Origin: a virus
Lineage: Duplodnaviria > Heunggongvirae > Uroviricota > Caudoviricetes
IMG/VR virus record: IMGVR_UViG_2711768017_000018
Length of the DNA stretch: 51,595 nucleotides
Strand: one strand, 5' to 3'
The position numbers are program-made. Below are positions 3,001 to 18,000 of this stretch, one piece after another; within the stretch, counting starts at the first letter, position 1; every line of letters starts with the position of its first letter.

Positions 3001-6000
3001 ATTCAGCTAAAACTTTTGTTCAGGAGACTCTGAAAGATACCTGGGAGTCTGCTGACGAGTGGTTTGTTCATTAAGTTCATCATCTCTGGACACCATTCAC
3101 TTGTATTGACTTTAAGATCATTAAATTGTAATAATTCAAAGGGATGGGGCAGGTTTTTCCTCTTGCGCATGCAAGGGCGGCTCTGATAATGAACAGTAAT
3201 ATTTTACTGTTGAGCTTATGCTCACTGATCCTGCCGGGCAGGATGTTCAACGGTTCCAATATATCCTGCCCCTTCCGCTTTTAAAAAGGATCTTTTATGC
3301 ATGACAATATTTGGTTTACATATAAAGCACGTATCCAAGCGCACCATCGACTAGAATGGCTTGAAAAACACTCTCAATTTATCCTCGTTTGGTATGCTAT
3401 ATTGAGTGCGGTACTTTCAATTGTAACGTTGCGATTTCCAAAGGTTCTAGGAGATAATACAGATGTCGTTGCGGCGATACTTTCAGTGGCTCTACTGGGT
3501 ATTTCTCTGATCGTATCTAACCTAGATTTTCGTGGTCGAGCAATAGCCATGAGAAGGAATTATATTGCACTACAGCGACTCTATTTTGACATTACCACCA
3601 GTCAACAGTTATCTCTTGAACAGAAAGAAAAATATTTTAATTTGCTCAATGAGGTTGAGAATCACCGTGACATAGATGATAAAATTTCAAGGGTAACTCA
3701 AGTTGGACTTAAGACGAGGATCCCCACACAAAAAGAAAAAATAATTGTTATTTTATGGATATTACTTCGAATATTTATTACTGCCGCACTTTATATACTC
3801 CCATTAATATATCTTTGGATTGACTATGACTGCAAGCAGAATTTTTAAAAAGTCATTCTCGAAAAAAAATCTTCTAAAAGTATACTCTGAAAAAATCAAA
3901 GAATCAGGAGCGATTGGCATAGATCGGATTCGCCCATCAAAACTTGATTTGACAATAAAAAATGAGATCACTTTCATTTTTGAAAAGGTTAATTCTGGCA
4001 ATTACAAATTTACAGCATATAAAGAAAAATTAATATCTAAAGGCGCTAACTCTACACCCAGACAGATTTCCATACCAACTGCTAGGGACAGAATTACTCT
4101 TAGAGCTCTCTGTGAATGCCTTACGGAAATATATCCTAAGTCCAGATTAAAACTACCACATACAGTAATTGACTCATTGAAAGAAGCATTAAACAACAGT
4201 CTATATGCTGAATATGCAAAAATAGATCTTAAAAGTTTCTATCCTTCAATTGAACATAAATTGATAATTAATGCAATAAAAAATAAAATTAGAAAAAAAG
4301 AAATTAGACAGTTAATAACATCATCATTAATCGTGCCTACTGTAAGTGGAACCACAGGAAGCAAAGGTATCCCTAATAATACCAGAGGAGTACCTCAGGG
4401 ATTAGCGATATCAAACATTTTAGCTGAAATATCACTATCTAATTTCGATGATGAAATCAATAAAATGCATGACATATGGTACATGCGATACGTTGATGAC
4501 ATTCTTATTTTAACACCAAAATATCAAGCAACAAAAATAGCTTCTCATATCATTGATAAGCTTCAATCATTAAATTTAAACCCACATCCATTAAATGAAG
4601 AGAACTCAAAATCCAAAGTAGGCAGCTTGGATGAAAGTTTCAACTTTTTGGGCTACCACATAAAAAATCGAGAATTATTGATAAAACATGAGAGCATTCT
4701 TAGATTTGAGTCATCCTTAGCAAAAATTTTTACTGCATATAGACACGCTCTACTACAAGCTAAAAATAAGCGCGATAAAGAACGAGCTGTTGCATATTGT
4801 CAGTGGAAACTAAATCTTAGAATTACGGGATGTGTGTTTGAAGGTAAACGATTGGGATGGGTATCGTACTTCTCACAAATAACGTCAACAGCTCAACTTC
4901 GAGCTGTTAATCATACGATCAATAATCTTATCCGCCGATTCGGCCTTTCATCAGAAATAAAACCAAAGTCTTTGATTAAAACTTTCTATGAACTCCGCAG
5001 GGGTAGAGCGGAGACTTTTAAATACATACCTAACTTTGACAATCTACATATATCTCAGAAACGAGAAATTGTTTCTATGTGGATAGGGAAAGAGAATGAA
5101 AAAAAACTTAGCAATAGTGAAATAGAGAGAAAATTTAAATTTAAAATTGCGAAATCAGTAAAAGAGCTTGAAGAGGACATTTCAGGGATATCATAGATAT
5201 GTAATCCATTAAATCCTTTATATATAAAGCAATAAACACACTATTTAAATTCACAAATCAGCCGCAGTATCCTGCCATGACAAGTTGCTGCGGCATATCA
5301 CAAAACGATTACTCCATAACAGGGACCGCAGGCCACTCAATATCAGGTGCAGTTGATGTATCAACACGGTTCAGCAACACCCGATACTTCTTCCAGGCTT
5401 CCAGCAACGAGTTTTCTTCCTCCGTTGCGATCTCCAGATCTACAGCATCCTGAAGTGGCGCTATATGCTCACTGGCTACCTGCATCAGGCTGTTTTTTGT
5501 TTCTTCCGCCTCCCGGATCCGGAACAGTTTTTCTGCTTCCGTATCCTTCACCCAGGCTGTGCCGTTCCACTTCTGAAACTCCCCTTCCGGGGATAACCAG
5601 GTAACATTTTCCGGTAACGGACCGAGTTCAGAAATAAATAACGCGTCCCCTGACGCTACGTCATAAACCGTTTTACCCCGATGGTCTTCAACGAGATGCC
5701 ACGATGCCTCATCACTGTTGAAAACAGCCACAAAGCCAGCCGGAATATCTGGCGGTGCAATATAGGTACTGTTTGCTGGCAGACCTGTATGAGGCGGAAT
5801 ATATGCGTCACCTTCACCAATAAATTCATTAGTTCCGGTCAGCAGATTATAAATTTTTATGGTCCGTGGTTGTTCACTCATTCTGAATGCCATTATGCAA
5901 GCCTCACAATATAGTTAAATGCGATGTTTTTGACGGTGTTTTCCGCGTTACCCGCAGCGTTAACGGTGATGGTATGTCCATGTGAACCAATCGCAACGGA

Positions 6001-15000: not shown

Positions 15001-18000
15001 CAGTCGCATGGGTTGCCGCCTCACGGGCTGATGTGCTGGCATCGCTGGCTGATTTCTTCGCGGCTGCCGTGTTCTGTGCCACCGCGGACGCGTTACGCGC
15101 CACCTCTTCCACCATCAGCTCAAAACGGCGCAGTGCCTCCGGACGGGCATCATCCTCCGTCATGGCACCGAGAAAATCATTCAGCGTACCGGGTCGGGAA
15201 TCTTCATACACGGTGATGGTCCCGGCATGTGACGGCGGGAATCCTTCCACCAACAGAATAACGCTGTACTGACCGTACTCAACGTCCATGCTGTAACGCC
15301 CGGCTTCATCCGGATTTTCTGAGGCCAGCGTGTTCACCACCACCGTGGTGCTGTTACGTTTTGCTTTCAGCTGGATTGTGCAGTTCTGTACCGGTTTTCC
15401 TGTGCCGTCTTTCAGTACACCTGAAATCTTTACTGCCATATTCACCCCACAAAAAAGCCCGCCTGAACCGGCGGGCTGTCATAACACTGTGTTACCTGGC
15501 TAATCAGAATTTATAACCGACACCCACGATGAAACCGTCAGTGCGCCAGTCACCACTGCCGGAACCTTCATAAGCGACATCAATGGCCACGGACTCGGTC
15601 GGGTTAAACTGCACGCCAGCCCCCCACGCCAGAGACGTGTTGCTGTGGCGACCGTCATCACTTCCGGTCAGCACATCGTGCGTTTTCCCCTTATTGTCAG
15701 TTACGCGGATATAATCCCCGGAAAAAGTCGACACACGGCTGTAAGCCACACCCGCCATCGCATACGCGCTGAACCATTCATTCACGCGCACAGACGGCCC
15801 CGCCATCACGCTGAACCAGCGGTTACGCACGGAATCTTCATACCAGCGGGTATCGCTGTAACGGGTCAGCTGGCGATTCTTGTCTCCTGCATAGCTGAAC
15901 GACGTCACCATCCCCAGTGTGTCCGTAAACTCATAACGGTATTTCACGTTAATCCCGTTCAGATCATCACTGCCGGGAACGTTGGTCCGGGCATGAAGAT
16001 ACCCCGCGCTCAGCGTGGACTGATGTTCAGACGCCCATGCAGGCGCACCGGATACGGCCAGGCAAATGGCTGCGGACAAAATGGCTGCACAAACTTTACG
16101 CATAATTACCTCTCGCTTTTCTGCAATAAAAAAGGCGTCATTCCTGACGCCATTTATTGGGGTTATAAATATTTCAACGAATACTGATGCCGGAAGCCGC
16201 TTTTTTGGTCACAATCACCGTACAGTCGGTGATATTGCCTGCCCCCTGATTGCCTTTCTGGAAAATCTTAAACTCCAGAGTGACGCTACCACCACCACTA
16301 GGCATATCAATAACTGCACTGTAACTACCGGGAATGGCACCTTTAGTTTCTCTGGATGCGATTAATACGCCGTTTTTGCGAACTTCAAAACCATAACCCG
16401 TGTATCGCGTGCCTCCTGGGTTATTTCCGCTCCCCGGATCGTCATACGCTATACCGTTAAAAATAATGGGCGGAATAATAATCTGGCGGTCAAAGTTATG
16501 ATCATCGCTTATGGTGACTGTAACCGTCCCGTTTGGTGTTTCCGTGTTACCCCACGTACCAGCCTGTTTCGGAAATGATTTGGATACAGCTTTAACGAAG
16601 TCACCTCTGACCTGAGTCGCCTCCAGCATGCCCTTAATCGTACAGTTTTCATTTACCGTGACATTGTTGAGCGTCCCGGCGTTCGCATTCACACTGCCAC
16701 TGATATCCGCATTTTTAGCGGTCAGCTTTCCGTCCGGAGTCAGGGAAAATGCCGATGGATTTCCACCGCTGGTAATGGTGGGGGCCGTCAGGCGTTTCAG
16801 GAACACGTCGTTCATGAATATCTGATCGCCCTGACCAACAAACATCGGTTTTGTGTTGCCATTCGCAGGATTAACCATCGCAATCCTGTCCGCCGCCAGC
16901 AGCACCTGACTCTGCATGCCGTCAGGGGTGTTCTCAATACCGGCACCAATACCCGCGATATAAAGGCGTCCGTCCTGCATCTGCTGCAGCTTCACAGCCC
17001 ACATGCTGTTCAGGTTATTATTTGTATCAACCTGAACCTTCTGTATCTGCTGAATTGCCGCACTCTGGTCTTCCAGTTTCTTATTGACGGTCTGCGTGAT
17101 TTCATTGCTGACATCCGTAATGGACGTCCTGATTTCAGCCAGGTCAGGCGCAAGCTGACCGTTATCAATCTGCGTCCACAGCTCCTGAGCCAGATGGGTT
17201 TTCCCTATCTCGCCTTTGAAAAAATNNNNNNNNNNNNNNNNNNNNNNNNNNNNNNNNNNNNNNNNNNNNNNNNNNNNNNNNNNNNNNNNNNNNNNNNNNN
17301 NNNNNNNNNNNNNNNNNNNNNNNNNNNNNNNNNNNNNNNNNNNNNNNCTGGCCTTTGAAAAAATCCAGGTAACCTTCCGCATCATCGCTCGCCCGACCGA
17401 CAGCCTCCACGAATGCTGATTTGCCGACGGTGTTCACACTGCGGATATAAAAGTAATAATCATGGCCCGGCTTAATATTGATACTGGCGGCTATCCAGTA
17501 CAGCCCCGTGCCAAGGTAGCGGGCTGTGGTTTCAACCTGCCTGATATCCGCAATCCGTTTTTCCGAGAACCAGAACTCAAACTGTACCGTCGGGTCATAA
17601 ACCGCAAGATGCGGCGTGGCGGTTATCTGAAAATAGCCCGGCGTCAGCTCAATCCGCGACAGCGCTGCCGGTGCGGCAATCCGGAACGATACCGACGCCG
17701 GATCGCCCTGCTGCCCCCACGCATTTACTGCCCGGACTGTCAGCCTGTAGTTCCCCAGAGCCAGTTGTGTGAAGCGGTAAGTGGTTTCCGTCGTCCGGGC
17801 CGTGCTGACCAGCCGCTCACGGCCGTCATCCGCTGCCACGGTCAGGCGAAGCAGGAAGCTCACGCCCTTCACCACCTTCGGCGTGTCCCAGCGGGCCAGC
17901 ACCTGGTATTCCCCGCTGTCTGCGGTGACTTCTGCGGTCAGGTGCTGCACCGCTGGCGGCGTGACACCATTTACCGTGCCGCTCTGGTCGCCGTCAAAGT

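Follow-up and report, generated by a model that had tools for sequence, protein, structure and literature searches.

The side-by-side position of two tail-fibre blocks (tfa-stf-lom-J') in the 51,595-nt record IMGVR_UViG_2711768017_000018 (the whole stretch analysed, hereafter the window) probably reflects a scaffolding error in a draft assembly, to which we give a probability of about 90%. Copy 1 would be the true end of a prophage integrated at dusA, and copy 2 would be misplaced. This role is assigned to copy 1, as the end of an intact prophage, because of a gap-free sibling assembly, the absence of the arrangement from 5426 complete genomes, a mismatched overlap at the second junction, the J variant found beyond that junction and the locus occupied by copy 2 in Shigella sonnei. 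The supposed tandem is almost certainly no real feature, and the finding is an ordinary one.

The window is the short-read draft scaffold CWWC01000004.1 of GCA_001251315.1, to which it was 100% identical, every N-run length included. The preliminary description mentioned one N-run; in fact five N-runs divide the window into six contigs (A-F), and three of the runs interrupt or terminate copy 2. The contigs and the N-runs around copy 2 are as follows:

1-10729: contig A, from the window start to the first N-run
10730-10959: N-run of 230 N, A/B join, read as false
10960-12362: contig B
12363-12600: N-run of 238 N between B and C, within stf2
12601-14219: contig C
14220-14446: N-run between C and D, within stf2
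14447-17225: contig D
17226-17347: N-run of 122 N, D/E join, read as false
17348-36691: contig E
36762-51595: contig F

In contig A (1-10729) the chromosome flank, which includes pspG, is followed by the left end of the lambdoid prophage integrated at dusA. The annotated features are:

542-1579, minus strand: dusA, chromosome flank
1668-2765: int, contig A
2826-3074: DinI-like gene, contig A
3297-3848: SLATT gene, contig A
3826-5196: UG17 reverse transcriptase (RT) gene, contig A
5309-5893, minus strand: tfa1, tail fibre assembly protein of 194 aa (Pfam Caudo_TAP, E 7e-45)
5893-9291, minus strand: stf1, side tail fibre of 1132 aa (phage_tail_N, Ala/Ser-rich shaft, gp34-like trimerisation domain, Collar, gp37-like tip)
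9356-9955, minus strand: lom1, 199 aa (Pfam Ail_Lom, E 8e-121)
10026-10729, minus strand: C-terminal 234 codons of J (Pfam Ig_GpJ_C, Phage_Tail_Tip)
10960-17225, minus strand: contigs B-C-D, end of a second lambdoid prophage
10960-11585: AT-rich non-coding DNA at the start of B
11586-12167, minus strand: tfa2
12167-15439, minus strand: stf2, interrupted by the N-runs 12363-12600 and 14220-14446
15504-16103, minus strand: lom2
16174-17225, minus strand: C-terminal part of J, copy 2
17348-19810, minus strand: N-terminal 821 codons of J, start of contig E
19811-51595, minus strand: dusA prophage body, the rest of E and F (tail, head, terminase, lysis, Q and early genes)

The tfa-stf-lom-J' block was indeed present twice at approximately 95% nucleotide identity and, as had been claimed, the copies are diverged and no duplicated read. 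Self-BLAST aligned 8299-10700 with 14447-16848 (95.8% over 2402 nt, gap-free), 5331-6088 with 11605-12362 (95.4%), 6253-6579 with 12754-13080 (95.4%) and 7810-8045 with 13984-14219 (91.1%). At the protein level, identity was 93.3% for Tfa, 99.0% for Lom and 93.6% for the C-terminal 233 aa of J. The homology stopped at 10700/16848; position 17385, where copy 2 was earlier said to stop, marks the limit of an open reading frame that crosses Ns and enters the following contig. Pfam searches found Caudo_TAP, phage_tail_N/Collar, Ail_Lom and Ig_GpJ_C on the copies. Specifically, both Lom proteins matched PF06316 over their full length (1-199/199, E about 1e-121), both Tfa proteins matched Caudo_TAP (E 1e-44 to 1e-45), and tfa lies directly downstream of each stf. 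The copies are real, diverged paralogues, each from a different lambda-like prophage within a single E. coli-type genome. Both resemble lambda J, lom, stf and tfa (Stf/Tfa of lambda Ur) in gene order and orientation and in their Pfam domains (the six J domains in siblings, Ail_Lom, phage_tail_N at the Stf N-terminus and Caudo_TAP). Unlike in the lambda module, integration is at dusA, the integrase gene stands beside the tail-fibre end across a DinI/SLATT/RT cargo block, and the Stf centres differ from each other.

The order of the copies, described as 'in tandem', hangs solely on the N-runs 10730-10959 and 17226-17347 and is nowhere seen in determined sequence; a genuine tandem duplication would show uninterrupted sequence over both junctions. 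The N-run lengths are arbitrary: 238 N stand where the S. sonnei locus L005 has 23 nt, 70 N where locus L001 has 413 nt, and the 122 N of the D/E join stand over a 17-nt overlap. The idea that the N-runs are deliberate masks over real sequence was rejected, since their lengths disagree with homologous sequence. The similarity between the 230 N after contig A and the true 247 nt was given no weight, the other N-run lengths being far off. Additionally, contig ends had been extended to overlap yet were left unmerged.

The J gene locates the breaks more closely. The last 17 nt of D and the first 17 nt of E share J coordinates and differ at one base. E then carries the variant CCAGGTAACCTTCCGC, as do J genes matching the end of A (L003 and L004), whereas J genes matching the end of D (L001 and L002) carry CCAGATAGCC(T/G)GATGC at this place. 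The first 60 nt of E are those of the L004 J variant, not of the variant that follows D-type sequence. As scaffolded (D, Ns and E), the J frame is broken and contains 31 stops, and neither J of the window is intact. Only the reconstruction of A, a 247-nt bridge taken from the sibling draft UDRL01000005.1 (L035) and E gave a full-length gene, with 3414 nt encoding an intact 1137-aa J without stops. This J matched the L035 J at 1137 of 1138 positions (stop counted) and can be equated with it; all six domains (FNIII-A, Phage-tail_3, Ig_J, Ig_J_second, Phage_Tail_Tip and Ig_GpJ_C) were found in the L035 protein. Judged from the sequence, 17348-19810 is the true continuation of the J piece at 10026-10729. 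As noted before, copy 1 stops at an N-run within J (10729/10730); the J fragment results from the contig end and is no biological truncation.

L035, from the same clone, had no mismatch over window positions 1-9574 and nine beyond, clustered in lom. It is N-free at the locus and passes from window 1-10729 through the 247 nt of J into 17348-25662 (99.77%), which contradicts the view of copy 1 as a remnant. An identical bridge was carried by L033. Four further drafts (L034, L037, L038 and L039) were identical in unique sequence and differed in joins and N-runs within lom and J, and the seven sibling drafts of the clone assembled the locus in at least four different ways. Additional variants of J, lom and stf also occurred in them, a pattern to be expected of several resident prophages. 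In principle, the sibling assemblies could be other isolates that are arranged differently.

Among 5426 complete E. coli genomes, B was never found after A, and no place covered both; the best matches ended at 10705, within a full-length J. The tandem was thus reproduced neither in L035 and L033 nor in complete genomes. All eight other loci with the exact Tfa1 (8/8) had one tail-fibre block each, and the exact Tfa1 in other genomes always adjoined dusA-int-RT. Contig A was 99.3% identical to the dusA locus of NZ_CM151362.1, its best complete E. coli match. The prophage body in E and F was 98.6-99.95% identical to the same genome and 99.15% to L015, and only 94-95% identical to the S. sonnei prophage that carries copy 2. 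An exact DusA look-up for a complete genome of the clone returned none; numerous distinct dusA prophages and a single sibling draft were matched instead.

These comparisons bear on whether the dusA prophage J gene truly received a 6.4-kb segment with a second tfa-stf-lom-J', by insertion or recombination, leaving a remnant beside an intact block. The deposited scaffold shows that order, scaffolder joins normally require some read-pair support, and lambdoid prophages are known to recombine. Nevertheless, a real tandem is very unlikely, given the Ns at both junctions, the mismatched 17-nt overlap with a broken frame at D/E, the lack of the insert in the gap-free assembly of the same clone and the count of 0/5426. 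Moreover, homologous recombination between J genes predicts a hybrid J, not a J fragment set against an AT-rich end that elsewhere borders IS1 or yodB. It is even harder to credit that the second block lies within the dusA prophage J and gives a single prophage a choice of two side-tail-fibre cassettes that differ in their shaft and tip segments; if true, these might be a substrate for recombination-driven fibre switching.

Contigs B-C-D had a 99.7-100% identical counterpart at one end of a prophage in complete S. sonnei genomes (L005 and others), where this end adjoins IS1, a P4-type integrase gene and yfdC-mlaA; past the left end of B come 123 nt and then IS1. In these genomes the J N-terminus joined to the B-C-D-type end was only 95.4% like E. 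Similar blocks adjoin yodB in E. coli S51, and complete E. coli genomes reached at best approximately 96% over B-C-D. A 40-mer from the left end of B had zero matches in the contig collection, and an exact Lom2 look-up for B-C-D in sibling assemblies matched nothing beyond the source scaffold and unrelated genomes. In this strain, we infer, the chromosomal site of B-C-D is other than inside the dusA prophage J; going by relatives, it would be expected beside an IS1/argW-side locus or beside yodB. An IS1-mediated real A/B junction was also considered and rejected: an insertion would leave the ends of A and E adjacent in J, whereas 247 nt separate them, and plain J sequence stands there in the gap-free sibling.

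The near identity to S. sonnei genomes, against approximately 96% for the best complete E. coli, would also fit contaminating DNA, for example from S. sonnei in the same run, that was drawn into the scaffold. Such an origin is highly improbable. lom2 is intact in the window, and 83 nt are missing there in the S. sonnei genomes examined; the collection lists 3535 blocks with the exact Tfa2, which is so not necessarily restricted to S. sonnei; and the extra J, lom and stf variants in sibling drafts fit several resident prophages. A further arrangement, in which only the A/B join is false, would make B-C-D-E-F one genuine prophage and derive A from another dusA prophage with its body elsewhere in the assembly. 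B-C-D are correctly ordered as a tfa-stf-lom-J block, as in complete genomes, and D and E hold homologous J parts that nearly abut. We regard this arrangement as very unlikely, considering that E opens with the A-type J variant, that E and F match dusA prophage bodies at 98.6-99.95% and the S. sonnei B-C-D prophage at 94-95%, that A is joined straight to E in L035 and L033, and that F-type early genes are connected with dusA-int-RT in L019, L026 and L031.

Under the scaffolding error, the genome would hold at least two lambda-like prophages whose J C-terminus, lom, stf and tfa modules are 91-100% identical in patches. The assembler would have broken contigs inside these repeats, and the scaffolder would then have threaded the 6.3-kb three-contig string B-C-D (10960-17225) into the 247-nt gap within the dusA prophage J. 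The real locus would read pspG-dusA-int-DinI-SLATT-RT-tfa1-stf1-lom1-J (10026-10729, 247 nt and 17348-19810) and continue into the remaining prophage, with each tail-fibre gene present once only. One point against this is that contig A ends in sequence that is no obvious repeat of the AT-rich DNA opening contig B. Scaffolding software was presumably the maker of the false join; false joins at repeats are a documented product of greedy scaffolders and gap fillers (PMC5320598), and the arbitrary N-run lengths, unmerged overlapping ends and differently joined siblings resemble false joins of the SSPACE/GapFiller type. Of the two origins proposed in the preliminary description, the join of two prophages agrees with these data; the remnant beside an intact prophage does not, and the roles of the copies are reversed. 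Where co-resident lambdoid prophages share tail-fibre modules, short-read scaffolds are especially prone to false joins, and a seeming 'tandem duplication' with N-runs at its borders is not to be taken as biology. What remains, a pair of resident prophages whose Stf segments are exchangeable, is expected for E. coli and Shigella.

Stf2 is in three pieces within the window, and its full sequence was taken from L005, where contig C is matched at 100% and contigs B and D at 99.7-100%. The claim of common ends and different centres was confirmed: Stf1 and Stf2 share the N-terminal ~510 aa (89%) and the C-terminal ~260 aa (78%), and no similarity was detectable between Stf1 523-875 and Stf2 567-765. 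PF08400, the N-terminal prophage tail fibre domain, covered residues 1-134 of both (E about 1e-71), and residues 1-94 matched the solved 'Tail fiber protein' chain 9e7m. The T4 gp37 tip (PDB 2XGF) matched Stf1 902-1132 and Stf2 794-1027 at E 1e-82 to 1e-84 (listed by protein as 1.8e-84 and 9.7e-82). The centre of Stf1 matched the T4 gp34 trimerisation domain (PF21446; 4uxe and 5nxf), and that of Stf2 matched the Mu tail fibre protein S (gpS; 8ju3, E 1e-85). The exact Stf1 was found only in eight contigs from seven sibling drafts. The dusA prophage of another E. coli (L021) carried a Stf2-type centre (98.4%) on a copy-1 backbone.

The Stf mosaic is genuine and represents the kind of segment swapping that is usual between fibre genes of the lambdoid, Mu-like and T-even-like types. 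Mosaic tail-fibre genes are reportedly common to lambdoid, P2, Mu, P1 and T-even phages; the Mu S-like centre of Stf2, the T4 gp34-like centre of Stf1 and the swap in L021 are exchanges of the same kind. The Stf1/Stf2 mosaic is nothing new in kind, being another combination of known segments. A link between the swapped centre and host-range switching, as had been proposed, is weaker, because the centres match shaft-type domains (gp34 and Mu gpS) while both tips are gp37-like. Both C-termini resemble the T4 gp37 tip with its gp38/Tfa-type chaperone in that they contain the His-x-His repeats and that a tfa gene comes after each. A second diverged patch of ~50 aa lies within the tip between these repeats (Stf1 about 1023-1075), and in our judgement this patch would more likely determine receptor choice than the swapped centres.

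Between int and tfa1, a predicted UG17-class RT gene (PADLOC RT_UG17, E 1e-158, model 1-429/429) adjoins an RT-associated SLATT gene (RTasSLATT, E 1.5e-56), and the two genes overlap at 3826-3848. The pair shows the gene adjacency of the DRT10 defence system, in which a UG17 reverse transcriptase and SLATT are accompanied by an ncRNA, a structured one that precedes the SLATT gene (PMC12632851). An Rfam search for the ncRNA upstream of the SLATT gene gave zero matches. The intergenic region 3075-3296 has a multi-stem predicted fold that, for this single sequence, was better than 200 of 200 shuffles (z = -3.8).

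The window contains five N-runs (10730-10959, 12363-12600, 14220-14446, 17226-17347 and 36692-36761) and is therefore a scaffold of six contigs:

1-10729, contig A
10960-12362, contig B
12601-14219, contig C
14447-17225, contig D
17348-36691, contig E
36762-51595, contig F

Contig A has the gene order pspG-dusA-int-DinI-SLATT-RT-tfa1-stf1-lom1-J', where J' is the C-terminal part of the tip attachment gene J; the second copy of tfa-stf-lom-J' is spread over contigs B, C and D. The N-run lengths do not reflect true gap sizes. At 36692-36761, in the lysis region, the window has 70 Ns where a related complete genome, NZ_CM151362.1, has 413 nt (L001, 39860-40272).

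The presence of two diverged tfa-stf-lom-J' blocks, claimed in the preliminary description, was confirmed. In a self-comparison, 8299-10700 matched 14447-16848 at 95.8% over 2402 ungapped nt and 5331-6088 matched 11605-12362 at 95.4%, with two further, shorter matches within stf; 15147-15546 is identical to 8999-9398. Pfam recognized Tfa, Stf, Lom and the J C-terminus in both copies, and protein identity between the copies was 93.3% for Tfa, 99.0% for Lom and 93.6% for the C-terminal 233 aa of J. This repeat is genuine and goes far beyond what chance would give. Rfam IS009 (RF02111) was found inside both tfa coding sequences, at 5352-5550 (minus strand, 225 bits) and 11626-11824 (minus strand, 218 bits); since the matches to this "sRNA" family fall on the tail fibre assembly gene, they are a marker of the repeat and not a separate RNA gene. 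Additionally, lom2 is intact in the window, whereas the complete Shigella sonnei genomes that otherwise match contig D at 99.7-100% are missing approximately 83 nt of lom found in both window copies (window 15550-15626 against L005 about 6808-6813); in these genomes lom is truncated or not called.

The two side tail fibre genes are as follows:

5893-9291, stf1, 1132 aa, intact
12167-15439, stf2, cut by two N-runs

The full Stf2 sequence was taken from L005, a locus matching contig C at 100% and contigs B and D at 99.7-100%. By BLASTP, roughly 510 aa at the N-terminus are 89% identical, with an extra 44-aa repeat unit in Stf2, and roughly 260 aa at the C-terminus are 78% identical; there was no similarity between Stf1 523-875 and Stf2 567-765, bearing out the proposed mosaic of common ends and different centres. 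Such Stf mosaicism is a well-known pattern. Segments were placed by matches to solved structures and by Pfam. The Stf1 centre matched the T4 gp34 trimerisation domain (PF21446; 4uxe, 5nxf), whereas the Stf2 centre matched Mu tail fibre protein S (8ju3, E 1e-85). Both C-termini matched the T4 gp37 tip (2XGF, E 1e-82 to 1e-84), in which a patch of approximately 50 aa between the His-x-His repeats differs. Another E. coli (L021) has a dusA prophage that encodes exact Tfa1 together with a Stf2-type centre (98.4%), and the centre is thus an exchangeable module. The swap had been read as a host-range switch; the swap itself stands, but the gp37-like tip, rather than the centre, is likely to be the receptor-binding part.

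The tandem order did not hold: adjacency of the two blocks is very probably (about 0.9) an assembly artefact. The junctions are N-runs, and in 0 of 5426 complete E. coli genomes did a query of 1-11585 find one place covering both A and B. The best complete-genome matches (99.3%) end at 10705, within a full-length J; in the best of these, L001, the rest of the prophage matches contigs E and F at 98.6-99.95%, and L015 gave the same picture. A single fibre block lies beside dusA in all eight other loci encoding exact Tfa1. Moreover, contigs D and E conflict. Where D stops and E begins, the two cover the same 17 J positions with one base different (CTC versus CTG), and just downstream E reads CCAGGTAACCTTCCGC, the variant of J genes matching the diverged last 29 nt of A (L003, L004), whereas J genes matching the end of D (L001, L002) have CCAGATAGCC(T/G)GATGC in its place. 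L003 and L004 have 247 nt between the sites that align with the end of A and with the start of E.

Exact Stf1 occurs in eight contigs only, which come from seven draft assemblies. One contig (GCA_001251315.1, CWWC01000004.1; 75,985 nt) matches the window at 100%, down to the length of every N-run, and is its source. A sibling assembly of the same clone (L035; GCA_900485145.1, UDRL01000005.1) has no Ns in the tail-fibre region; over 1-9574 it does not differ from the window, its 9 mismatches lie in lom, and it runs from window 1-10729 through 247 nt of J to 17348-25662 (99.77%). The same 247-nt bridge occurs in a second sibling (L033). In four more siblings the unique sequence is identical, but lom and J show still other joins and N-runs; resolution of this region differently at each assembly is the signature of a repeat-induced scaffolding error. 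False joins by greedy scaffolders and gap fillers are documented (PMC5320598). At a different chromosomal site, GCA_000941575.1 (LM997173.1, locus 10001-16006) carries lom, stf fragments, lom, stf and tfa, possibly a tandem artefact of this kind in another, unrelated draft scaffold.

As scaffolded, D, 122 Ns and E are out of frame, whereas A, the bridge and E form an ORF of 3414 nt for an intact J of 1137 aa. Very probably, then, the intact dusA prophage ends in copy 1, its J continuing through the bridge; the suggestion of a remnant prophage beside an intact one is not supported. Complete S. sonnei genomes (L005, L008, L014) have a prophage end that matches contigs B-C-D at 99.7-100%, where the adjoining J N-terminus is only 95.4% like contig E; beyond the left end of B lie 123 nt and then IS1, and the locus adjoins yfdC-mlaA and a P4-type integrase. 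A relative of B (97%) adjoins yodB in E. coli S51. Copy 2 is very probably the 6.3-kb end of a second lambdoid prophage resident in the genome, put in the wrong place, in agreement with the suggested scaffolding join of two prophages. The biology left over is ordinary, namely two prophages resident together whose side tail fibres are mosaic.

Between the dusA-type integrase/DinI genes and tfa1, contig A carries two cargo genes:

3297-3848, plus strand, RT-associated SLATT (PADLOC RTasSLATT, E 1.5e-56), overlapping the RT gene
3826-5196, plus strand, UG17-class reverse transcriptase (PADLOC RT_UG17, E 1e-158)

Judged by sequence, this pair would be the DRT10 defence system of PMC12632851, reported there to need an ncRNA encoded upstream of SLATT. 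The intergenic region 5' of SLATT (3075-3296, 222 nt) has a predicted multi-stem fold (z = -3.8).

Other E. coli dusA loci (L023, L029, L030) have the same integrase and DinI pair followed by quite different cargo, such as NleG-type effectors and P2-like or Mu-like tail modules; many unrelated prophages with one common integration module occupy the dusA site. The closest complete-genome relative, L001, has a deletion of approximately 9.5 kb (33129-35092 versus window 21046-30590) that leaves truncated C40 peptidase and portal genes fused to each other; the window prophage has kept this tail and head region. In its early region, C4 antisense RNA (RF01695, 82 bits) and isrK (RF01394, 64 bits) lie side by side at 45013-45201 (minus strand), which we read as a P1/P7-type immunity RNA module.
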